64,000 nt of DNA from Candidatus Kaiserbacteria bacterium (GTDB lineage: Bacteria > Patescibacteriota > Minisyncoccia > Phycocordibacterales > UBA2100). Below, piece by piece: positions 4,872 to 56,747 of the stretch. The notes below the pieces were generated by a model, which did no database searches, had not been told where the DNA came from, and was given only the letters and a program-made list of their open reading frames with translations. Made by a program: the position numbers and the translations under genes. The stretch spans positions 21,394 to 85,393 of the forward strand of contig VGJQ01000001.1 of assembly GCA_016867375.1 (NCBI GenBank), read 5' to 3'. Numbering within the stretch: position 1 is the first letter of the stretch; the number at the start of each line of letters is the position of its first letter.

Positions 4872-5030
4872 ATGCGCGTAACCTCGGACCTCAAAAAATT
4901 CGTTGATGAGTTGCTACCCGCAATCGTTCGGGACATCAAGATAGGCGCACTGATCGTCGCTGGATTTTTGACGCTCTTGGCAATTCTTCTAATTGCGGAT
5001 GCAATATGGAGAATGTTTCCGTCGCACTAG
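4872..5030 (+). CDS. Candidate small membrane protein (52 aa)
   Basis: GGAGGAAG ribosome-binding site 3 nt upstream of the ATG. A single hydrophobic helix (IGALIVAGFLTLLAILLIA). Followed by a hairpin terminator. Below the 60-aa ORF-track cutoff. Confidence 0.3.
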   Translation: MRVTSDLKKFVDELLPAIVRDIKIGALIVAGFLTLLAILLIADAIWRMFPSH

Positions 5031-5042
5031 ACGTGCGCACAA

Positions 5043-5068
5043 CTCCCGCAAGAAATTGCGGGAGTTTT
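5043..5068. terminator. Rho-independent terminator-like hairpin (ctcccgcaa-gaaa-ttgcgggag plus T-run), between convergent genes
   Basis: Perfect 9-bp stem followed by TTTT. Sits between the plus-strand small ORF and the stop of the minus-strand HIT gene. Confidence 0.6.
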
Positions 5069-5474
5069 ATATGTGGGCGGCAATTTTTCCTCGCACCGTT
5101 TCCGCTTCGCCCTCCCTATATGCACCATGTGGCCAGAGCTTGAGGCCGTCTCCGCGATAGCGGGGGATAAGGTGCATGTGGGGATGCTCAATGATCTGTC
5201 CGGCATGCTCGCGATTGTTCATCATGAGATTGACGCCATCAGCCTGCAGCGACTCCTCGATCGCGATCGCGACTTTGCGCACGGACTCAGAGACCGCACC
5301 CCAGCTCTCCGGAGCAATATCAAAAATATTCATCGCATGCGCCTTGGGTACGACGAGCGTATGTCCCGACGTGACCGGATGAATGTCGAGAAAAGCAAGC
5401 GTGTGCTCATCCTCATACACCGTGAAACTCGGTATCTCACCGCGCACTATTTTGCAAAAAAGACAATCCTGCAT
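5067..5474 (-). CDS. HIT-family (histidine triad) nucleotide hydrolase
   Basis: 135 aa with the HIT motif HPHMHLIPR and an N-terminal CLFCKIV zinc-binding segment. Confidence 0.85.
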   Translation of the reverse strand: MQDCLFCKIVRGEIPSFTVYEDEHTLAFLDIHPVTSGHTLVVPKAHAMNIFDIAPESWGAVSESVRKVAIAIEESLQADGVNLMMNNREHAGQIIEHPHMHLIPRYRGDGLKLWPHGAYREGEAETVRGKIAAHI

Positions 5475-5510
5475 AGATACCCAATTATACCAATATCACA
5501 CCACATCGCA

Positions 5511-5550
5511 CACTTGTTTATAGTTCGCGGCCGCGAACTATAAACAAGTG
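5511..5550. promoter_or_regulatory. 40-bp perfect palindrome cacttgtttatagttcgcggccgcgaactataaacaagtg (copy 1)
   Basis: Perfect dyad symmetry. Lies 36 bp downstream of the PaaX-like gene stop and 27 nt upstream of a TGgTATAAT extended -10 preceding the HIT gene start. A near-identical copy lies upstream of the PaaX-like gene. Confidence 0.6.
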
Positions 5551-5585
5551 CCTCATAATACAACGTTCACATTGTTTGCATTCTC

Positions 5586-6206
5586 TTAATCCAGTGGTAA
5601 GCCGAAGTGCTTACGGAGTGGTCGATCATATTCGACCGCATCGGCAATAAGGTATAGGAGGTTGGTACCGATGCACAGATTCGACTTGAGTAGAGCGATC
5701 ACTTCTTCGCAGTCATACGGATAGACCCACACACTATGTTGCAGTCGTAAGAAGCCAAGGTGGCGGACAAGGTATCGGATATGGTCACGCTGCGCTTTTC
5801 GTTTCTCCGGTATGTCAAAGATGACGATGCGCCAGCGACGATCCCACCGTTTTGGCTTGACGATAGATTTTATGCGACTCAGCTCCGCTTCCAAAAAATC
5901 CTTCCCCTTGTCAGTGATGCACATGCGCTTGCGGCCATTTTCATATCGGAACTCGACCAAACCCTTTCGTTTAAGACGCGAAGCCGTTTCATGGAGGCGC
6001 TGACGTGGGTCGGAAGGAAGGATCATATCGAGATGCTCGTTTTTCACGAGCGACAACACTTTTGGCGCCGCCATGGCCACTGTAAGAAGCCCTCCAGTGA
6101 CCAGCGTACCTAAAAGAACCTTCTCGAGTGCACCACGGCGAGCACGCTTCCTGACAACTCCCTCTAGGGTGAGAGTGGATACATTTTTACCGGGTAGTCT
6201 TTTCAT
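5586..6206 (-). CDS. PaaX-family-like transcriptional regulator (winged-HTH plus C-terminal Cas2-like/PaaX_C-type domain), with an N-terminal hydrophobic segment
   Basis: wHTH-like segment ASRLKRKGLVEFRYENGRKRMCITDKGKDFL. C-terminal WDRRWRIVIFDIPE...LGFLRLQHSVWVYP pattern as in PaaX C-terminal domains. The family assignment is by motif recall only. Confidence 0.5.
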   Translation of the reverse strand: MKRLPGKNVSTLTLEGVVRKRARRGALEKVLLGTLVTGGLLTVAMAAPKVLSLVKNEHLDMILPSDPRQRLHETASRLKRKGLVEFRYENGRKRMCITDKGKDFLEAELSRIKSIVKPKRWDRRWRIVIFDIPEKRKAQRDHIRYLVRHLGFLRLQHSVWVYPYDCEEVIALLKSNLCIGTNLLYLIADAVEYDRPLRKHFGLPLD

Positions 6207-6227
6207 AATGCAATGCGGAGATTATAG

Positions 6228-6267
6228 CACTTGTTTACAGTTCGCGGCCGCGAATTGTAAACAAGTG
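6228..6267. promoter_or_regulatory. 40-bp near-perfect palindrome cacttgtttacagttcgcggccgcgaattgtaaacaagtg (copy 2)
   Basis: One mismatch from perfect dyad symmetry. Its end, ...aacaaGTG, runs directly into cTATAAT (an extended -10), about 10 nt before the ATG of the PaaX-like gene on the minus strand. Confidence 0.6.
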
Positions 6268-6445
6268 TTAGCGCGTCTATAGCACCGTTTATTGACTCAG
6301 ACCAAAGTGTTCGGCGAGGCGATAGAGTTTTTGGGAGATCTTTTAAAAGACCTCCTTTACCATATGTGGATCTGAAAATACCATAGCACACTGTTTCAAT
6401 CTGTCCATTGAACTCCAATTAGGTCACGATGCTACAATCATTGCG

Positions 6446-8143
6446 ATGAACGATGTTGGTATATCAGACCTCGTGCGTACACTGCTTGCCAAACGCGGTG
6501 TTGAATCAGAAGAAGACGTCGCCGCGTTTCTTTCTCCCGATTACGATGCACACACGCATGCGCCGGAATTATTGCACGACATGAAGATCGCAGTCGACCG
6601 CATCTTGAAAGCGATCGAGAACAACGAGCGGATTGCATTCTATACCGACTTCGATTGTGACGGGATTCCCGGAGCGGCGATTCTGTCGGACTTTTTTGCA
6701 AAAATAAAATACGACAATGTCGAAGTATATATTCCACATCGCGACAGGGAAGGATACGGCTTCCATGTCGCAGCGATCGAGCAGCTCGCTGCACGCGATG
6801 TGAAGGTGATCATCACTGTCGACGTCGGCACGGTCGCGCGCGAAGGATGTGCAGCCGCTCACGCATTGGGGATCGACGTCATCGTGACCGATCATCACGA
6901 AATCATCGGGGAGCGCCCCGCATGCTTGGCACTCGTGAATCCAAAGATTGCACCCTACCCGTTTGGCGGACTCTGCGGGGCGGCGACCGCATTCAAGCTC
7001 GTGCAAGCCACACTCGCCGAAGGGAAGCGGCGCGGACTCGAATCGTTCACGTCGATTCCCGATGGATGGGAAAAGTGGCTTCTTGATCTCGTCGCGATTG
7101 CGACCGTCGCGGACATGATGCCGCTCGTCGGCGAAAATCGCACGCTCGTACATTGGGGCCTCAAGGTGCTGCGCAAATCCGCTCGCCCCGGGATCGACGC
7201 CTTGTGCGCGGCGGCGCGCATCCGCAAAAGCGAGCTCACTGAAGATGATATTGGATTCACCATCGCACCTCGTGTGAATGCCGCTTCACGTATGGATGAG
7301 CCGAATCTCGCACTCAAACTCCTCACGACCCGTGACCGCGATGAGGCACAGTACCTCGCTGCGCAGCTCGAGCACCTCAACGCGAGCCGCAAGGGCGTCG
7401 TCGCAGGGATCGTAAAAAACGCGCGCAAGCACGTGGCCGCCCGCTATGGCGAAGGCGATAAAGTCGTCGTACTCGGCGACACAGCGTGGAAGCCCTCCCT
7501 CCTCGGGCTCGCCGCAAATTCGATCATGAACGATCGCGGCGGCATCGTGTGCTTGTGGGGCCGCGACGCACATGGAAAACTCAAAGGCTCGTGCCGCTCC
7601 GATGGCGAGATCAGTCTGGTGGACCTTTTTACCCATGCGCGCGACGTGTTTGAAGAGTGCGGCGGACATGCAGCATCGGGCGGATTCTCCGTTTCACACG
7701 AGCACGTACACACGCTTCCTGAGGCGCTTGCGCGCACCGTTTCACAGATTCAGTCCGATATGTCTGCGGACCCAAAGGCAAGCAACGCACCAGATCATGA
7801 CTCCATCATTACATTACGGGAAGCTTCTTGGGCGCTTTTCAAAGACATCTCGCTTCTCTCTCCATTTGGTATAAGCAACACGAAGCCCGTGTTTCGAATT
7901 TCGACCGTGACGATCCGATCAGTGCGACAATTTGGAAAAGAAAATAATCATGTCGAACTCCAACTCATAGAAGAGCGGACCAACGCGGCCGCGCGTGCAT
8001 TTCAATTCTTCAAAACCGCTGAAGATTTTTCACACACGCCCCGCGTAGGTGACACCGTGCACGTACTCGCCACACTGGAGCGCGACACCTTCCGTGGAGA
8101 GACCGCGACGTGCCTCCGCGTGATCGACATCCTCTCCGCGTAA
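6446..8143 (+). CDS. recJ: Single-stranded-DNA-specific exonuclease RecJ
   Basis: 565 aa with DHH family motifs (DFDCDGI, VTDHHE) and the DHHA1 region. A TACAAT -10 box lies about 9 nt upstream of the ATG (possible short leader). Confidence 0.9.
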   Translation: MNDVGISDLVRTLLAKRGVESEEDVAAFLSPDYDAHTHAPELLHDMKIAVDRILKAIENNERIAFYTDFDCDGIPGAAILSDFFAKIKYDNVEVYIPHRDREGYGFHVAAIEQLAARDVKVIITVDVGTVAREGCAAAHALGIDVIVTDHHEIIGERPACLALVNPKIAPYPFGGLCGAATAFKLVQATLAEGKRRGLESFTSIPDGWEKWLLDLVAIATVADMMPLVGENRTLVHWGLKVLRKSARPGIDALCAAARIRKSELTEDDIGFTIAPRVNAASRMDEPNLALKLLTTRDRDEAQYLAAQLEHLNASRKGVVAGIVKNARKHVAARYGEGDKVVVLGDTAWKPSLLGLAANSIMNDRGGIVCLWGRDAHGKLKGSCRSDGEISLVDLFTHARDVFEECGGHAASGGFSVSHEHVHTLPEALARTVSQIQSDMSADPKASNAPDHDSIITLREASWALFKDISLLSPFGISNTKPVFRISTVTIRSVRQFGKENNHVELQLIEERTNAAARAFQFFKTAEDFSHTPRVGDTVHVLATLERDTFRGETATCLRVIDILSA

Positions 8144-9635: not shown

Positions 9636-11153
9636 ATGTATAATCCCCGCCACATGGGGTCAACCATACTCTGGTCTACGGTAATCGGATTTCTCTCTGG
9701 CGTATTTGCGCGGTCTTTTATCCCACTCGGGTACGCTACGATGGGCACGCTTGTCCTCACGTCTTGGGCGCTTCTTGCATACGTCGCTCTCGGTAAAAGA
9801 TACGCGCGCATATGCATCTCATTGGCCGCTTTTTGTTTTCTGTGTGCGGCAGGGATATGGCGCATGGACATGGCGATCATCCCCGTCGACACGACCCTTC
9901 AGGCGCACACTGGTCAACGTGTCACTTTGTCGGGATACGTATTTGCCGAGCCCGACGCGCGCGAAGGCAGCACACGCGTATCCCTCAAGGTCCGCACACT
10001 GAGCATCGCGAGCACCACACTACCCGCACATGCCGGCATACTCGCCGTCCTGCCACCCCATACGCACGTCTCATACGGGGATATCGTCACGGTCTCGGGC
10101 ATCGTACGCATGCCCGAAGCATTTGATACCGGCATCGACCGGACATTCGACTATCCTGGATACCTCGCCACCAACGGTATTTCATACCTGGTATCTTCCG
10201 CACATCTCGAATCCATCGATGGCAACGAGGGCAACATCGCGCAGGCCTCCGTACTGCGCATAAAAAAGATATATCTCGACGGCCTCCATCAGACCTTGAG
10301 CGAGCCACAGGCGGGCCTCGCCGCAGGTATCACCGTCGGCGACAAACGATCCATCGGACCGGAGCGCTCGGAAGAATTCGTACGCGCCGGACTCGTCCAT
10401 ATGCTTGTCCTGTCCGGTTACAACATCACGATCATCCTCAACGCGGCAGCGTACTTCGTATCCTCCTTGCCGCGCGTCCTCCAATTGGGCACGAGCGGCA
10501 TCGTCGTCATGTTTTTTATCCTCCTTTCAGGCGGGGCATCGAGTGCGATACGCGCCGGACTCATGGCGCTCGTCGCTGCATTCGCCCGCCAGCACGGACG
10601 CATCTACCTGCCACTGCGCGCTATCGGGATCGTCGCAGCCGGTATGGTGCTCTGGAATCCATATATCCTTGCATTTGACCCAGGATTCCAGTTATCGGCA
10701 CTTGCCACCATTGGTCTCGTCGCCTTTACGCCGCCTATCGCCTCACACCTCCCTTGGATCACCGCCCGCCTTGGACTGCGCGAGATTGTTGCATCAACCC
10801 TCGCGACCCAAATCACCGTACTACCATTGCTCCTCTACCAAAACGGGCAACTTGCCGCCCTCTCACTTCCGGCAAACATTTTGGCACTCATTCCCGTACC
10901 TTTTGCGATGGCGGCATCGTTTGGCGCAGCGGTACTTGGAGCATTGTTTGGATCGACTGCGGCTATACTGGCATTTCCTGCATATGCACTCCTTTCGTAT
11001 ATACTCAGCATCGCTCATTTTTTCGCCTCGCTTCCGTTTGCGTCGGTATCTATCCGCGCATTCAGCGCCTGGTGGCTCACCATCGTATATATGGGACTCT
11101 TCATGTGGTGGCGATATTATGTCTCTGATGATAAAAACGAAAAAGCGGCCTGA
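9636..11153 (+). CDS. comEC: ComEC/Rec2-family DNA-uptake channel protein (N-terminal DUF4131 plus competence domain; no fused MBL domain)
   Basis: Polytopic. The conserved competence-domain region (HMLVLSGYNITII...GGASSAIRAGLMALVA) is present. The start was set at the first ATG downstream of hairpin element B. The ORF track starts at 9486, inside the hairpin. Confidence 0.8.
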   Translation: MYNPRHMGSTILWSTVIGFLSGVFARSFIPLGYATMGTLVLTSWALLAYVALGKRYARICISLAAFCFLCAAGIWRMDMAIIPVDTTLQAHTGQRVTLSGYVFAEPDAREGSTRVSLKVRTLSIASTTLPAHAGILAVLPPHTHVSYGDIVTVSGIVRMPEAFDTGIDRTFDYPGYLATNGISYLVSSAHLESIDGNEGNIAQASVLRIKKIYLDGLHQTLSEPQAGLAAGITVGDKRSIGPERSEEFVRAGLVHMLVLSGYNITIILNAAAYFVSSLPRVLQLGTSGIVVMFFILLSGGASSAIRAGLMALVAAFARQHGRIYLPLRAIGIVAAGMVLWNPYILAFDPGFQLSALATIGLVAFTPPIASHLPWITARLGLREIVASTLATQITVLPLLLYQNGQLAALSLPANILALIPVPFAMAASFGAAVLGALFGSTAAILAFPAYALLSYILSIAHFFASLPFASVSIRAFSAWWLTIVYMGLFMWWRYYVSDDKNEKAA

Positions 11154-13840: not shown

Positions 13841-16800
13841 GTGAACGCCGAATCCCGATACTTACACGGTCTCAACGAACGACAAAAAGAGGCGGTACTC
13901 CACACCGAGGGGCCGCTTCTCATCATTGCAGGAGCGGGGGCGGGCAAGACTAAGACCATCACACACCGCATCGCACACATGATCGAGCAGGGGGTACCAG
14001 CGCGACAAATCCTCGCCGTGACGTTTACCAATAAGGCGGCGGGGGAGATGCGTGAACGCGTCAAGAAATTGATCCCTGAGGGAAGGGGCGTCCCTTTGGT
14101 CGCGACATTTCATAGCCTGGGTGTGCGGCTTTTGCGCGAATTCCATGAGGAAGCGGGGCTTGAGCGCGGTTTTAGTATCTGGGATCGCGACGATAGTATG
14201 CGCGTCATCAAGCGTGCGCTCGAAAAGCTCAATATCGAGACGATCCCCGGCCGCAATGTACTGTCGGCGATTTCCCGCGCAAAAGGGGATGGCATCTCGC
14301 GCGAGGAGTACGATCGCGACGCCAATTCATTCCACGAGCGCACGGTCGCCCAAGTATGGCAGATCTACGACAAGGCGCTTCACGAAGAGGGTGCCTTGGA
14401 TTTCGACGACCTCCTGGGTCGTACACTTATGCTTCTACAGAACTCGCCGCGCGTGCTTGAACTTTTGAGGGGTCGCTGGCACTACATCACGATCGACGAA
14501 TATCAAGACACCAACGCCGCGCAATACGAGATTGCACGCTTGCTTTCTGGCGAGCGCCGCAATCTCTGCGTCGTCGGCGATATCGACCAGTGTGTTGCGG
14601 AAGGAACACTCATTACTATGGCAGATGGAGAAAAAAAACCTATCGAACGTGTCAAAAAGGGTGATTTAGTGCTATCAAACTATGGCAGCGGCGCCATGCG
14701 CCCATCACACGTCCATCGGATACACAGGCGATCAACAAGGGAAACAGTGACTATCACCACAAAATCCGGCCGTAGACTGACGACCACATCGGATCATGTA
14801 CATTTTGCCGGATATCGGCTCGGTATCGTGCCACAGATGTATTTCACGTACCTTATGTATAAGCACGGCGTCGGGTACCGACTTGGAGTATCACAAGTCT
14901 ATGCCAACGGCCAACGAACTCCAATGGTCGGATTCCAACAACGCTGCAACCATGAACACGGGGATGCTGTATGGATCATTGGAACTCATACCGCCTCGAA
15001 CGATGCGCGCGTCATGGAGTACACACTCTCTCTCCAATACCAAATACCGACACTACCATTCGTGGCGCGCAAAGGAGTGAGTGTCGGCGGATATGTACAC
15101 GACCAAAGGGTTATAGATGCACTATTCGCCACAATCGATACAGAAAAGGGAGCCTTTCGGCTACTTCGAGACCGTGGCCTGTCGCGCGATTACCCCCACC
15201 ACCGAGCACAGTCTCGAGACAGTAATCGGCGTAATGTAACGATCACGCTCTGTGGCGATCAGCGCGGTAAAACCCCTATGCATCGTATATCAATGACCGG
15301 AAATGACGACGAAGGGAAACATCTTTTGCAATCTATCGGACTTTCCGTGCGTTCTGTAAAGAATGGATCATCGAGCTGGCGTTTCGAGAGTGCACACGCC
15401 GACTACGCAGCCTTGCGTGAACGTGTCATGCACATCTCTACTGTGTTTCCCAGACTTGCCATAATTGAGAATGCACGACTTGGTGGCAATAAGGCAAATC
15501 CAAAAGATGGAAATTCGCTCGGTTTCCTACCAGCCGCATCGGTGCTTCCTGGCATGGCCCTGTTCGACGAGGTGGGAGGATACGACATTATAACTGGTGT
15601 AGAAAAAGCTACTCAAACCAGGCGCGTTTACGACATCGACATCGAACACACACACAATTTCATCGCAAATGGCATTATCACGCACAATTCGATATATACT
15701 TGGCGCGGGGCCGACATCGAACACTTGATGAACTTCGAGACTCAGTTCCCGGGTACCAAAGTCATCCTCCTCGAACAAAATTACCGTTCTACGCGCACCA
15801 TCCTCACCGCTGCCAATGCGGTGATTGCTAAAAACAAACGCCGCAAAGAGAAAAATCTTTTTACCGACAACGACACAGGCGAACCGATCCATACATACGC
15901 CGCGCGCAATGAAATGGACGAATCGTGGTTTGTCGCACAGACAGCGGTCGAGATGATACAGGGGGGCATCAGGCCCGACGAAATCGCAATCCTTTACCGG
16001 GAGAACTTCCAGTCGCGTGCACTCGAAGAGGCACTCCTCGCATTCTCAGTGCCCTATCGCGTGCTCGGCACCAAATTCTTCGAACGCAAAGAAGTGAAAG
16101 ACACGCTCTCATATCTGCGCGCTGCGCTCAATCCGAAAAGCAAAGTCGATCTCGTGCGCGTGGCCGCTGTACCACCGCGCGGTATCGGCAAAGTGACGCT
16201 CGATAAAATGCTTGCCCCGTTAGAAAAACCAGATACTAACGGCTTCACGTCAATATGGGACCAGTTTTTTCTAACGGGGCGAGTGGGGGATGAGTCTTCC
16301 ATCACAGGAGCAACACTCATCAAGGTGACAAAATTCCGTGAACAGATCGCGGCTATACGCAAAGCAATCGAAACGTTACCCGCATCTGAAGCGGTGCGAT
16401 ACACCGTCGAAGTGTCCGGTATGGAAAAGATGTATCAGGAAGACAAGAAAGAGGGGATAGAGCGTCTCGAAAACATCCACGAGCTCGTCAATCTCGCCGT
16501 GCGCTACGATGAGGAGCTCCCCCCAGTTGGTATCGAAAAGCTCCTCGAAGAAGCCGCCCTCCAGTCCGACCAGGATGAGCTTGAGGAGCCCCAGGCAGCA
16601 GTCTCCCTTATGACCATTCATGCGTCCAAAGGTCTCGAATTCGACGCGGTGTTTGTGACCGGCCTCGAGCAAGGCCTCTTTCCGTCACTACGCGAAGATA
16701 CGCGCGACCCCGAAGAAGAGCGCCGACTCTTCTACGTCGCTGTCACACGCGCGCGCAAGCGGCTCTTCCTCAGTCATGCCGGCGAACGCATGAAATACGG

Positions 16801-19115: not shown

Positions 19116-20030
19116 ATGAAGTATCCGTACTTTTTGGGTGTCGTCGGCATTATCGCATTACTCGCCATAGGGGGAGCAATCGTTGACACGCGCGTGCCCA
19201 TCGGCGCTGGCGAGAGTACGTATAGCGGGGGTACACCCATTTATTTTGACACTTCCTCCTATGCACCCTATCAGCCGTCGACGCAGAATCAGACCCCTGA
19301 TGACAGCACTCCGGCAATCCCCACCATGCGTACGTATGACTCGTTTTCATATACACCAGACCCAAGCAAGGGCTCTGCGACAAACATCCCGAGCACGATC
19401 ATCCATTCTGATTCAAGCTTTGATTTCAATGCATTCATGCAGAAGCTGTCTTCATCGGGTACATCGGCTTCACAGATCCCTGTAGGCACATCGATTAATA
19501 CTCCTATTATCCAAGAAGAATCGTATCCGTTCGTCCCCCCCGAGCTTTTTTCATCGCCTGACGCACCACCTGCGCGCTCCGCACTCCAACAAGAGCTCTA
19601 TACGTATGGCAACACAGCAGGCTCTTTCCTAAAGACATACGAACAGATGCATGCCAACGACGTCGCGGTGATGCAGCGCTTTTTTGACACCCGGACAAGC
19701 GCACCAAATACGACCGCGCTGCGCCAAGTCGCCAACGACTTTAAGGCGGTGGGCCTCAATATGAAGACCGTGCAGCAGGTCCCCGCACCAGCCGCGTCGA
19801 TCCATAAAAATCTCGCTGAGTCGTACATCGTCGTCGCAGATAAGATGATCGCCATGCTCTCTACCGCAAACGACGAAGACTTCATCCAGGCAGTCCTCAC
19901 ATACAATGCGGCCGTTGAAGAAAACCTCAAACACCTCGTCGCGCTCATCGACACTTTTGCCAACAACGGCGTGAAATTTGGACCGAGTGAATCCGGGAGT
20001 GTCTTTATGTTTTCAAGCGTCGGCTTGTAA
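19116..20030 (+). CDS. Hypothetical N-terminally membrane-anchored protein (304 aa from MKYPYF)
   Basis: One N-terminal transmembrane helix followed by a Ser/Thr/Pro-rich linker and a helical domain. The stop codon TAA is part of a REP-like element. The ORF-track start at 18789 gives an Arg/Cys/His-rich, non-protein-like extension. Confidence 0.55.
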   Translation: MKYPYFLGVVGIIALLAIGGAIVDTRVPIGAGESTYSGGTPIYFDTSSYAPYQPSTQNQTPDDSTPAIPTMRTYDSFSYTPDPSKGSATNIPSTIIHSDSSFDFNAFMQKLSSSGTSASQIPVGTSINTPIIQEESYPFVPPELFSSPDAPPARSALQQELYTYGNTAGSFLKTYEQMHANDVAVMQRFFDTRTSAPNTTALRQVANDFKAVGLNMKTVQQVPAPAASIHKNLAESYIVVADKMIAMLSTANDEDFIQAVLTYNAAVEENLKHLVALIDTFANNGVKFGPSESGSVFMFSSVGL

Positions 20031-20116
20031 GGGCTCGTCCACACATAACGTACCCGTTATGTGTGGACTACACTTATGGCCCCGTTCATTTCGAGTTGTT
20101 AATGAACGGGATCTAA
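20028..20116 (+). repeat. REP-like element, full-length two-hairpin form (copy 2)
   Basis: taagggctcgtccacacataacgtacccgttatgtgtggac followed by tacacttatggccccgttcatttcgagttgttaatgaacgggatctaa. The same two-hairpin arrangement is at 36769-36862. Confidence 0.7.
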
Positions 20117-20170
20117 ACACACGCACATTCGGCATCACAACAACGCGCAGACGGATGATATACTTAATGA

Positions 20171-36685: not shown

Positions 36686-36768
36686 TCCCCACCTTATCCA
36701 CACCTTGTGAACAACTCCGGAGAAAAGCGCCTTGCTTCTTAAAAAAGAATAGAAGCGTATAATGTGGA

Positions 36769-36862
36769 TAAGGGCTCGTCCACAAATAACGTACTCGTTA
36801 TTTGTGGCAGCCACTTATGGACCCGTTCATTTTATGTTGAACTTTTTATGAACGGGTCCTAA
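36769..36862 (+). repeat. REP-like element, full-length two-hairpin form (copy 4), inside the oriC region
   Basis: taagggctcgtccacaaataacgtactcgttatttgtggc ... ggacccgttcattttatgttgaactttttatgaacgggtcctaa. Confidence 0.65.
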
Positions 36863-36887
36863 CTAATACATATCACTCCAACTACCT

Positions 36888-38243
36888 ATGATGGCAAACC
36901 GAGAATTGTGGCAAAATGCACTCGTACAGATCGAGCTCGGCACGTCGGAGACCAGTTTTCGGACGTGGTTTCGCAATACGGATATCGCCAGTCGGGAAGG
37001 GGGAGTGGTACACGTCGCCGTACCATCAAAGATCGTAAAAGAGTGGCTCACCGACAAGCACAACAAGCTCATCCTCAAAACACTCCGTAGTTTAGATCCT
37101 TCGGTACGGACGGTAGAATACACGATTCACAAATCTATCGCCTCTCCTGTGAATGACCGTAAAACACCTCGCCAACCTTCCCCTGAAAATGCATCGCTCG
37201 ACCTCAGCAGCCTCTACATCGATAAGCGGGACAATTTGAACCCTCGCTATACCTTTGAAACCTTTGTGGTGGGACCATTCAATCAGCTCGCGCACGCGGC
37301 TGCAAAAGCAGTGCTTGAGCGCCCCGGACTCACCTATAATCCACTTTTTATCTATGGATCGACCGGACACGGAAAAACCCACCTTATTCAGGCAGTGGGG
37401 AATTACTTCAAGAAAACCCACGCCAATAAAAAGGTTTTGTATGTGACTTCCGAACGATTCGCCATCGACTACATAAACGCCGTGCGCTCCGGCCACGCCA
37501 ACACCTTCAAAGACCAGTATCGCCAATATGACGTCCTCATCATGGACGACATCCAATTCATCGCAAACACGGAAAAGACCCAAGAGGAGCTTTTTCACCT
37601 CTTCAACGCGCTTCGAGACAACAATAAACAGATCGTGTTTTCATCTGACAAACATCCATCACTCCTGAGCGGTCTCGAGGAGCGCCTCAAGAGCCGTTTT
37701 GCAGGGGGTATGATCGCCGAGATCCCTGAGCCGGACGTCGAGTCACGCACAGCGATCATCCGTGCCAAGATCGAACAGCACGGATTCTCGATCCCTGAGG
37801 ATATCATCAGCTACATCGCCGAAAACGTCCGCGGCAACATCCGCGAACTTGAAGGTGTCTTGAATATGATCGTCTGCCGATCGCAGTTGAAAGGCAAAAC
37901 CATCTCTCACGCCGACGTAAAAGCGCTTATTAAACACAATATGAAACCCTCGAAAGGCGTTTCGGTGGATGAGGTGGTGCGCCGCATCGCCCACTACTAT
38001 GACATCACCGAGAAAAACATCTATGAAAAGACGCGTAAAAAGGAGGTGGTGCGGCCGCGCCAAGTCATTATGTACATCCTTCGCGAGGAATTCAACATCT
38101 CATACCCTTCAATAGGGGAAAAGCTTGGAGGGCGAGATCACACCACCGTCATACACTCGTGTGAAAAAATCAAAGAGGAGGTGAAGGCAAACCCATCACT
38201 CGAAGCTGAGATCGAGCATATCCGCTCGCTTATCCAGGTATAA
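36888..38243 (+). CDS. dnaA: Chromosomal replication initiator protein DnaA
   Basis: AAA+ motifs (GSTGHGKTHL, IMDDIQF) and the C-terminal DNA-binding domain (RPRQVIMYI...). Confidence 0.95.
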   Translation: MMANRELWQNALVQIELGTSETSFRTWFRNTDIASREGGVVHVAVPSKIVKEWLTDKHNKLILKTLRSLDPSVRTVEYTIHKSIASPVNDRKTPRQPSPENASLDLSSLYIDKRDNLNPRYTFETFVVGPFNQLAHAAAKAVLERPGLTYNPLFIYGSTGHGKTHLIQAVGNYFKKTHANKKVLYVTSERFAIDYINAVRSGHANTFKDQYRQYDVLIMDDIQFIANTEKTQEELFHLFNALRDNNKQIVFSSDKHPSLLSGLEERLKSRFAGGMIAEIPEPDVESRTAIIRAKIEQHGFSIPEDIISYIAENVRGNIRELEGVLNMIVCRSQLKGKTISHADVKALIKHNMKPSKGVSVDEVVRRIAHYYDITEKNIYEKTRKKEVVRPRQVIMYILREEFNISYPSIGEKLGGRDHTTVIHSCEKIKEEVKANPSLEAEIEHIRSLIQV

Positions 38244-56460: not shown

Positions 56461-56570
56461 ACATTAAGCGTCCATCAATGGGAAATTTCGTCTTTGCCGT
56501 CTTTGCGAGGCCTTTGGCCGAAGCAATCCAGAGTTCTACCACTCACCCCTGGATTGCTTCGCTTCACTCA
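56461..56570 (+). repeat. About 100-nt repeat, copy 2 (intact 13-bp stem cgaagcaatccag/ctggattgcttcg)
   Basis: About 90 percent identical to 39596-39700 over the core. It also carries an internal ggcctttggcc mini-hairpin. Confidence 0.6.
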
Positions 56571-56585
56571 CAAAGACACCATTGG

Positions 56586-56626
56586 TAAGGGCTCGTCCAC
56601 AAATCACGTACTCGTTATTTGTGGAC
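56586..56626 (+). repeat. REP-like TAAGGGCTCGTCC-hairpin element (copy 5)
   Basis: taagggctcgtccacaaatcacgtactcgttatttgtggac. Confidence 0.65.
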
Positions 56627-56747
56627 TACACTTATACTTCGCCCCAAATGGCTACGAAGGACTACTTCGCGCTCGCTCGCCAAGTCATTGCGGATATACG
56701 TAAAAATCTGCGTCTGTGCCGTGCACTACGAAGCTTTAGCGAAGTAG

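Follow-up and report, generated by a model that had tools for sequence, protein, structure and literature searches.

Among described transcription regulators, PaaX comes closest to the protein that is the subject here. PaaX represses its own promoter via steric hindrance of RNA polymerase, and in Escherichia coli its operator is TGATTC-N27-GAATCA, a site of 39 bp (PMC9493321). A 64-kb stretch of DNA from a metagenome-assembled genome (MAG) of Candidatus Kaiserbacteria (contig VGJQ01000001.1), a member of the candidate phyla radiation, carries a gene for a short PaaX-like protein, here called X, between two nearly identical 40-bp palindromes, or dyads, named O1 and O2. The whole stretch is referred to as the window, and positions are counted from its first letter. 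This arrangement is probably one of autorepression, in which X would repress itself at O1 and O2 would serve as an auxiliary operator or as a target-gene operator ahead of the promoter of the neighbouring HIT-family gene. The mechanism itself is ordinary. What is new is the portable module of operator, gene and operator, with its conserved dyad centre, which runs through the family in bacteria of the candidate phyla radiation. Literature searches found no description of such a module, and no paper in the collection searched that mentions PaaX together with Patescibacteria or with a Cas2-like protein.

The dyads, their promoters and the family pattern

An earlier note, made from the letters of the window, had placed two palindromes around a PaaX-like gene, and both are present, at 5511-5550 and 6228-6267. 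Gene X (5586-6206, 206 aa), the HIT gene and both of their promoters are on the minus strand, so the copy that the note calls upstream is the one at 6228-6267, and this sequence (CACTTGTTTACAGTTCGCGGCCGCGAATTGTAAACAAGTG) is called O1 on the strength of its position here and the homologous position in relatives. O2, at 5511-5550 (CACTTGTTTATAGTTCGCGGCCGCGAACTATAAACAAGTG), is a perfect 20+20 dyad, as had been claimed. The two copies are 93% identical and differ at three positions rather than two, namely T10>C with A31>G, which compensate for each other across the arms, and C28>T, which is single. With up to three mismatches allowed, O1 and O2 are the only copies of the 40-mer in the window, and none of 100 shuffles gave a match. 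Looser half-site searches of the window returned nothing convincing beyond these two, and neither further copies nor paralogues of X were found elsewhere in it.

The gene-proximal end of O1 runs directly into the promoter of X, its final two bases (minus strand) being the TG of an extended -10 element, TGcTATAAT (6221-6229, minus strand). From TATAAT to the ATG at 6206 there are 14 nucleotides (nt), not about 10, and no Shine-Dalgarno sequence. O2 lies 35 nt past the stop codon of X. On its other side it is 21 nt, end-on, from the TATAAT box (18 nt counted to the TG) of a second extended -10 element, TGgTATAAT (5484-5492, minus strand), which stands 9 nt ahead of the ATG (5474) of a HIT-family (HinT-like) hydrolase gene (5067-5474, minus strand), the candidate target of O2. 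The corresponding distances had been put at 36 bp, 27 nt and about 8 nt. Promoters this close to their genes are common in the window. A -10 box (at least 5/6 match) lies 4-11 nt ahead of a candidate start in 16 of the 49 long open reading frames (ORFs), compared to 8 at a control offset, and 13 of these 16 have a near-consensus -10 hexamer that ends 6-7 nt before the start, recJ being an example. Leaderless or near-leaderless promoters are thus normal in this host, which makes the -10 boxes of X, HIT and recJ credible.

The family of X is large, with 504 clusters (50% identity) at E<=1e-30 and 3,090 at E<=1e-10, and its members are uniform in length, at about 185-200 aa. The comparative set consisted of 80 Patescibacteria-type loci on 80 contigs, from at least 593 confirmed loci in species-representative genomes. 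A long palindrome was defined as having at least 15 paired bases per arm and a loop of at most 4, and it counted as adjacent to X when within about 150 bp. Long palindromes occur at 1.26 per kb beside the X genes compared to 0.044 per kb elsewhere in the same 80 loci. A second test, which is independent of palindromy, agrees with this density: the two flanks, 5' and 3', have a 14-mer in common (at most one mismatch) in 47 of 68 X genes but in only 7 of the 259 other genes of these loci that served as controls. The dyads of the family are 34-50 bp long, mostly 36-40 bp, and the start-to-start spacing of the pair is 717 bp in the window and 634-715 bp in ten relatives.

The arms of the dyads are lineage-specific, and those of L002 and L067, paralogues from a single MAG, are unrelated in sequence. 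At 50-65% identity to the window X, close relatives share the outer half-site CTTGTTTATAA, and their inner arms diverge yet stay symmetric. The outer-arm motif varies in step with the type of recognition helix and wing. For example, DPRQRLxETASRLKRKG goes with CTTG(T/C)TTA, and RQ--KEI...SR..L goes with CATAC(A/G), and the identical recognition helices of L021 and L043 pair with identical arms. Such co-variation is as direct recognition would predict, and common ancestry would contribute to it too. The centre of the dyad is CGRYCG in 31 of 72 cases and CTATAG-like in another 31, and the two types are never mixed between the two copies at one locus. No convincing protein column was found to set the type (maximum mutual information 0.56), and the type is not clade-specific, the nearest neighbour having the same one in 26 of 42 cases. 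For these two reasons the centre is more probably a matter of flexible pyrimidine-purine steps, that is, a DNA shape requirement, than of base-specific contact.

Some loci hold dyads beyond the usual pair, namely a third family-type dyad a few hundred bp off or a differently armed dyad several kb off, the latter of which may mark a paralogue past the end of the locus. Such loci are L066 (1000-1043, 1408-1455, 2048-2093), L011 (8286-8323) and L036 (7627-7666).

The position of the upstream dyad bears most directly on autorepression. In close relatives a gap of 1-3 nt divides it from a TAnnnT box, which in turn stands 6-22 nt ahead of the start codon, as with the -10 boxes 1-3 nt past the dyad in L002-L009 and L101. 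Several relatives have just 6 nt from box to ATG, which implies a leaderless mRNA, and in distant members the dyad overlaps the start codon, which puts the -10 box inside the proximal arm. Because the dyad abuts or contains the -10 box in family members, O1 covers the core promoter of X throughout the family, and this is the geometry of steric autorepression. The length of the dyad fits as well. The earlier note regarded 40 bp as much longer than a typical operator, but beside the 39-bp site of E. coli PaaX (PMC9493321) it is normal for the family, not anomalous. The outer hexamers of the window dyad, ACTTGT and ACAAGT, are 26 bp apart, and a dyad of this length would put both winged helices on the same side of the DNA, with roughly three turns between them.

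A mechanism can be proposed on these grounds. A dimer of X would bind the 40-bp dyad, one winged helix on each outer arm (ACTTGT...ACAAGT), with about 32 bp, or three turns of the helix, between the centres of these arms. O1 would span roughly -14 to -53 at the extended -10, short-leader promoter of X, and X bound there would keep RNA polymerase off and thereby act as its own repressor, in the manner of PaaX at Px. The claim that the dyad is the cognate operator at the leader-poor promoter of X draws support from its position, its family-wide conservation and the co-variation of arm and recognition helix.

The same layout is found around an unrelated regulator. In the Kaiserbacteria relative L155, a 92-aa ArsR/MarR-type winged-helix gene (14084-14362) is bracketed by a pair of palindromes of ~30 bp, of which the first (14037-14070) precedes TAGAAT-6 nt-ATG and the second (14332-14361) overlaps the stop codon. 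This argues for a regulatory design principle, not for a peculiarity of X.

It had also been suggested that one regulator gates both its own gene and HIT. The part concerning HIT is partly supported. In the closest relative with a long contig, L101, X is 75% and HIT 80% identical and there are three dyads. The first abuts cTATAAT upstream of X. The second lies 129 bp past the stop codon of X and faces the 3' end of a convergent guaA, with a canonical terminator hairpin adjoining. The third is located between the divergent guaA and HIT genes and is 21 nt from TGgTATAAT, just as O2 is in the window, so that the dyad-21 nt-TATAAT-HIT arrangement is kept despite the intervening guaA. The link of O2 to HIT appears to be conserved in this small clade, with X retaining its own downstream copy. 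On the other side, HIT has neither dyad nor X in three relatives (L151, L153 and L154, below), and the downstream dyad is also kept before convergent genes.

Elsewhere in the family, O2 is followed at 28-32 nt by the -10 box of dnaE (L002, L003, L005, L014; L100 and L148 are arranged like L002) or else by the -10 box of tpiA (L013). Judging from these arrangements, O2 is part of the X unit, and whichever gene follows makes opportunistic use of it. Its own role may be that of an auxiliary operator that forms a loop with O1 (634-717 bp spacing), or that of a protein roadblock that ends the X transcript and closes the transcription unit. In this genome it would also bring HIT under the control of X.

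Protein X

X consists of a basic N-terminal stretch, a hydrophobic segment (aa 30-47), a recognition helix and wing (aa 67-97) and a Cas2-like PaaX_M domain (aa 119-201), and it terminates at aa 206, directly past that domain. In the Pfam scan, PaaX_M (PF20803) matched aa 119-193 (E 6e-19, 68.3 bits, cut-off 24), weak winged-helix matches covered aa 70-118, and neither PaaX_N nor PaaX_C was matched. Of the PaaX_C/Cas2-like fold that the earlier note had expected of a domain search, the Cas2-like PaaX_M part was found and PaaX_C was not. The NCBIfam model for PaaX (TIGR02277) scored 31.1 bits, compared to its cut-off of 264.55, and the Cas2 models stayed below threshold (TIGR01573, 23.1 vs 24.5 bits; PF09827, 17.9 vs 23.8 bits). 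Pfam, NCBIfam, PADLOC and PHROGs gave PaaX_M, Cas2 and winged-helix matches only. Identity with the Cas2 of a clustered regularly interspaced short palindromic repeats (CRISPR) system was rejected on account of these sub-threshold scores and because Tandem Repeats Finder detected no CRISPR array in the window.

The structural comparisons lead to PaaX as well. AlphaFold2, run with 32 and with 103 homologues, gave a predicted local distance difference test (pLDDT) score above 90 for the recognition helix (67-80), the wing (84-97), a helix at 99-110 and the ferredoxin-like domain (125-201). Foldseek against the PDB returned E. coli PaaX (8a39) as the top match (E 1.5e-4), ahead of numerous Cas2 structures. 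PaaX again ranked first when PDB sequences were searched with a profile, in an alignment that spans the recognition helix, the wing and the WDxxW start of the Cas2-like domain, and the recognition helix and wing of X align to F-93 (1tbx) and Mrr_N in addition to PaaX. On this evidence X is a putative truncated PaaX-type protein, made of a winged helix and a Cas2-like domain and devoid of an effector domain. The FDI and Q-SVW motifs of the Cas2-like domain are conserved in the family, and Asp131, which is part of FDI at the end of strand 1, is invariant. Going by the offsets of the Cas2 model and by Cas2 biochemistry, Asp131 would occupy the metal-binding position of Cas2. The aligned residue in E. 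coli PaaX is Glu, and since that protein is a plain repressor, Asp131 alone is no sign of catalysis.

Solo sites and competing readings

Copies of the dyad also occur away from X. An exact scan of metagenome contigs with CTTGTTTAYAR-N12-18-YTRTAAACAAG found 69 loci, and 29 of the scanned sites are fully palindromic with a family-type centre. An X gene adjoins nine of these and is absent from the 900 bp to either side of 15 others; for the remaining 5 the contig ends too soon to tell. The solo sites represent a few loci that recur across samples, upstream of guaB (inosine monophosphate dehydrogenase), purA (adenylosuccinate synthetase), an S9 peptidase gene and others, and samples with solo sites also contain an X gene with the same dyad (L091, L133). 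In one species-level group, the sites at X, guaB and purA are identical over the whole half-site bar the central RY dinucleotide, and such near-complete identity points to a read-out of almost the full 17-20 bp half-site. Stray half-site matches numbered 6 in 294 kb of flanks. A conserved purine regulon, suggested by the solo dyads at guaB, purA and guaA/HIT, was considered and dropped because orthologous guaB (L155, L156, L158) and HIT (L151, L153, L154) genes are without a dyad; the guaB of L157 has none either. The solo sites are preferably seen as species-specific. The dyad CTTGTTTATAAAATGCGGCCGCATTTTATAAACAAG is present at L107 4602-4637 and L125 4017-4052 with no X nearby, and its flanks are symmetric over at least 12 nt on each side, giving a palindrome of at least 60 bp.

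Several observations weigh against autorepression by X at a cognate operator. The guaB genes of L155, L156 and L158 have a plain TTGACA/TATAAT leaderless promoter, and the solo sites of guaB and purA have in common a tail of 22 nt, GTGCGGCCTTCCCGACGCCTT, which is attached on one side only, the one facing away from the gene (L086 3462-3485; L083, reverse strand, next to 7525-7560; L096; L098). The tail looks like a duplicated segment, or it could be one part of a composite site. Together, the non-conserved guaB sites and the shared tail fit a duplicated or mobile repeat as well as they fit a regulon. Another point is that O2 lies between convergent genes in L006 (DsbB-like), L016 (TatD), L066 (amidase) and L101 (guaA), where it serves no promoter. 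In the protein, an invariant Asp131 is unneeded for a pure dimerisation role, and in the deeper AlphaFold2 model residues 21-64 have a pLDDT below 50 and the complete winged helix is not confidently modelled. The charges that flank the hydrophobic segment, taken at face value, predict an N-in, C-out membrane anchor, a topology incompatible with operator binding.

Comparison of the locus with its relatives shows that the unit behaves as an indel. The relatives are long contigs (L151-L154) that carry HIT homologues of 69-81% identity. In L151, L153 and L154 the order is RNase H - DUF975 - recJ | HIT - ... - pgk - tpi, with an extra gene behind HIT in L153 and L154. The gap between recJ and HIT is 22-35 bp in these three, with the two -10 boxes nearly back to back and HIT under a plain leaderless promoter. 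They have no X gene or family-type dyad within 10 kb on either side, and no dyad scar between recJ and HIT. Compared to these syntenic relatives, the window has about 970 bp extra (5475-6445), which comprise the HIT promoter, O2, X, O1 and the recJ promoter region. The fourth contig, L152, has a different small (Rce1-like) gene and then a 32-bp perfect palindrome, TATACCCGCCACGATCGATCGTGGCGGGTATA, with a CGATCG centre (9913-9944) before HIT, and X is not at that position.

Different family members have different genes beside X, with no more than 6 members in the largest neighbour cluster, and these genes are housekeeping ones such as dnaE, rnhB, gyrA, pgk, obg and those for tRNA synthetases. 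Where X stands between rnhB and dnaE, its orientation in L075 is opposite to that in L002, L003, L005 and L014. Besides the indel between recJ and HIT, the varying neighbours, their housekeeping nature and the opposite orientation in L075 show that the operator-gene-operator unit relocates as a block over evolution. It is a conserved module placed in differing surroundings across Paceibacteria. The two palindromic copies are direct and inverted repeats at once, and recombination between them could therefore delete or invert X.

One could consider the unit a selfish or mobile module in the manner of a REPtron (REP, repetitive extragenic palindromic). Here X, as a winged helix with a Cas2-like nuclease, would act on the flanking palindromes, the cassette and the solo copies would have been moved, inverted or copied, and the overlap with the promoter would be secondary. 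The scarless indel relative to three syntenic genomes, the neighbours that are not conserved, the opposite orientation in L075 and the retention of O2 between convergent genes all speak for this, as do the identical solo copies with their tail at unlinked loci, missing at the orthologous guaB of three species, and the invariant Asp131 at the active-site position of Cas2. However, the copies are few (2 in 64 kb and almost none in the 294 kb of flanks), the rnhB-X-dnaE synteny is maintained over 55-65% protein identity, the relation of dyad to X promoter is constant across the family, and PaaX of E. coli, a plain repressor, is also acidic (Glu) at the position of Asp131. There is no transposase, integrase or target-site duplication, and no relative was found in 2.9 million viral contigs; for this last reason, and because PHROGs yielded only weak 'transcriptional regulator' matches, a phage or viral origin was rejected. 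The small mobile cassette of the earlier note gains some support from the indel between recJ and HIT, but there is no transposase, no viral association and no high copy number in the DNA scanned. As a whole, the mobile module is unlikely. It is rather improbable, too, that the dyads are substrates that X cuts or synapses, with the cassette inverting, excising or seeding solo copies at new promoters.

The hydrophobic N-terminal segment, which had been called unusual for a DNA-binding protein, is real and conserved. Its Kyte-Doolittle mean over 19 residues is at least 1.6 in 31 of 32 homologues, and the mean over 17 residues reaches that value in 93% of 133 diverged representatives (less than 50% identical mutually). 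The persistence of this 17-19-mer could mean that X is exported or membrane-anchored through it and acts on extracellular DNA, and that the dyads are bound by another, cytoplasmic factor. The net charge of the flanks in the 133 representatives (+3.5 N-terminally and +1.7 C-terminally of the segment) and the low pLDDT over the region are in keeping with export. Against it, charged residues occur within the segment in 32% of the representatives, at recurring positions in its first half. An A-P-(N/K) motif comes after the segment in 77%, with Pro usually right behind the last Ala; this is unfavourable for signal peptidase, and a cleavable Sec signal was rejected for that reason. A twin-arginine translocation signal was rejected because the twin arginine is not conserved. 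In alignments to F-93 (1tbx) and PaaX, ~40 residues are expected before the recognition helix, and the length and position of the segment fit H1-strand 1-H2 of a winged helix. Also, the sequence of the dyad tracks the recognition helix of X itself. On balance, export combined with another binding factor is very unlikely. The segment is more probable as H1 and strand 1 of the winged helix than as a membrane anchor.

That the palindromes work as RNA or DNA hairpins independent of X, be it as 3' stabilisers, as terminators of the X transcript or as insulators, is hardly credible: although the O2 RNA would form an 18-bp stem, the 111-nt region folds at -40.4 kcal/mol (z = -5.5) and the dyad centre remains palindromic while its sequence varies between species, the sequences behind the dyads (GUGUGCGAUG and CUAUAAUC) contain no U tract, neither dyad was picked up by the terminator scan, O1 and the solo sites are upstream of -10 boxes and hence untranscribed by those promoters, and a generic hairpin leaves the paralogue-specific arms that track the recognition helix unexplained. 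The strong hairpin terminator of the earlier note thus proves a weak idea. Canonical stem-plus-T-run terminators are used elsewhere in the genome, and L101 has one beside its O2. One such hairpin at 5039-5068, where HIT (minus strand) and a 52-aa ORF (4872-5030, plus strand) have their 3' ends, indicates that the genome uses ordinary intrinsic terminators, unlike the 40-bp dyads.

The remaining features of the window can be dealt with briefly. The neighbours of X are HIT, recJ, pgk and tpi, and the window contains none of guaA, guaB, purA, dnaE and rnhB. The recJ gene (6446-8143, plus strand) is divergent from X and has a leaderless-type promoter with an extended -10 element, TGcTACAAT (6430-6438, plus strand), 7 nt before its ATG at 6446. 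Rfam, at the gathering threshold, matched one tRNA and nothing else in the whole window. A repeat unrelated to the dyads, TAAGGGC-TCGTCCACAAATAACGTACTCGTTATTTGTGGAC-TACACTTATGG, occurs in three copies, all on the plus strand and all intergenic, at 20035-20070, 36777-36810 and 56593-56628 (about 19990-20130, 36740-36870 and 56560-56640), and its arms resemble DnaA boxes. One copy is just upstream of dnaA (36888-38243), where perfect TTATCCACA boxes are also found, and the replication origin region is therefore probably located there.

Meaning and comparison with known systems

To our knowledge, almost no transcription regulators have been characterised in Patescibacteria. A large family of X with a readable pairing of protein and operator is a data set from which rules of specificity could be worked out and the small regulons of uncultured bacteria mapped. 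Candidate reasons for bracketing a regulator gene with its operators include looping at very low protein copy number, a protein roadblock that replaces a terminator and a portable cassette. If the Cas2-like domain were catalytic on the dyads, Cas2-fold proteins would be tied to DNA rearrangement outside CRISPR. If X cut or synapsed the dyads, it would be a Cas2-derived counterpart, in bacteria of the candidate phyla radiation, of REP sequences and their REP-associated tyrosine transposases (RAYTs).

The known system most like X is PaaX of E. coli W and Pseudomonas (8a39), the repressor of phenylacetate catabolism, in which a winged helix is followed by a Cas2-like central domain, as is predicted for X. 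The PaaX operator, TGATTC-N27-GAATCA, and the ACTTGT-N26-ACAAGT to which X is predicted to bind are both very long, have inverted outer hexamers and overlap promoters. The two proteins differ in size, with PaaX at about 305-316 aa compared to 206 aa for X, and X is without the PaaX_C (phenylacetyl-CoA) effector domain. Unlike with PaaX, there are no paa genes near X, its neighbours being housekeeping genes, and the dyad of X is palindromic over all 40 bp, has a conserved centre and is present in a second copy at the 3' end of the gene. Cas2 and the VapD-type nucleases share with X a ferredoxin-like beta-alpha-beta-beta-alpha-beta domain. Unlike in Cas2, this domain is fused to a putative winged helix in X, which also has no CRISPR array in its window and scores below the Cas2 thresholds.

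Two further comparisons concern the arrangement of the repeats. In the REP/RAYT systems, or REPtrons, a single gene is likewise flanked by lineage-specific palindromic repeats, with more copies in intergenic positions. X differs in that it is no HUH/Y1 transposase, its repeat is far less numerous in the DNA scanned (2 copies in 64 kb), and that repeat overlaps the core promoter of the gene. The lac O1/O2, gal OE/OI and deo operators resemble the O1 and O2 of X in having a second operator some hundreds of bp downstream. In contrast to these, the gene bracketed here is that of the regulator itself, and looping or tetramerisation by X would be the step that completes the parallel, one that is purely inferred.

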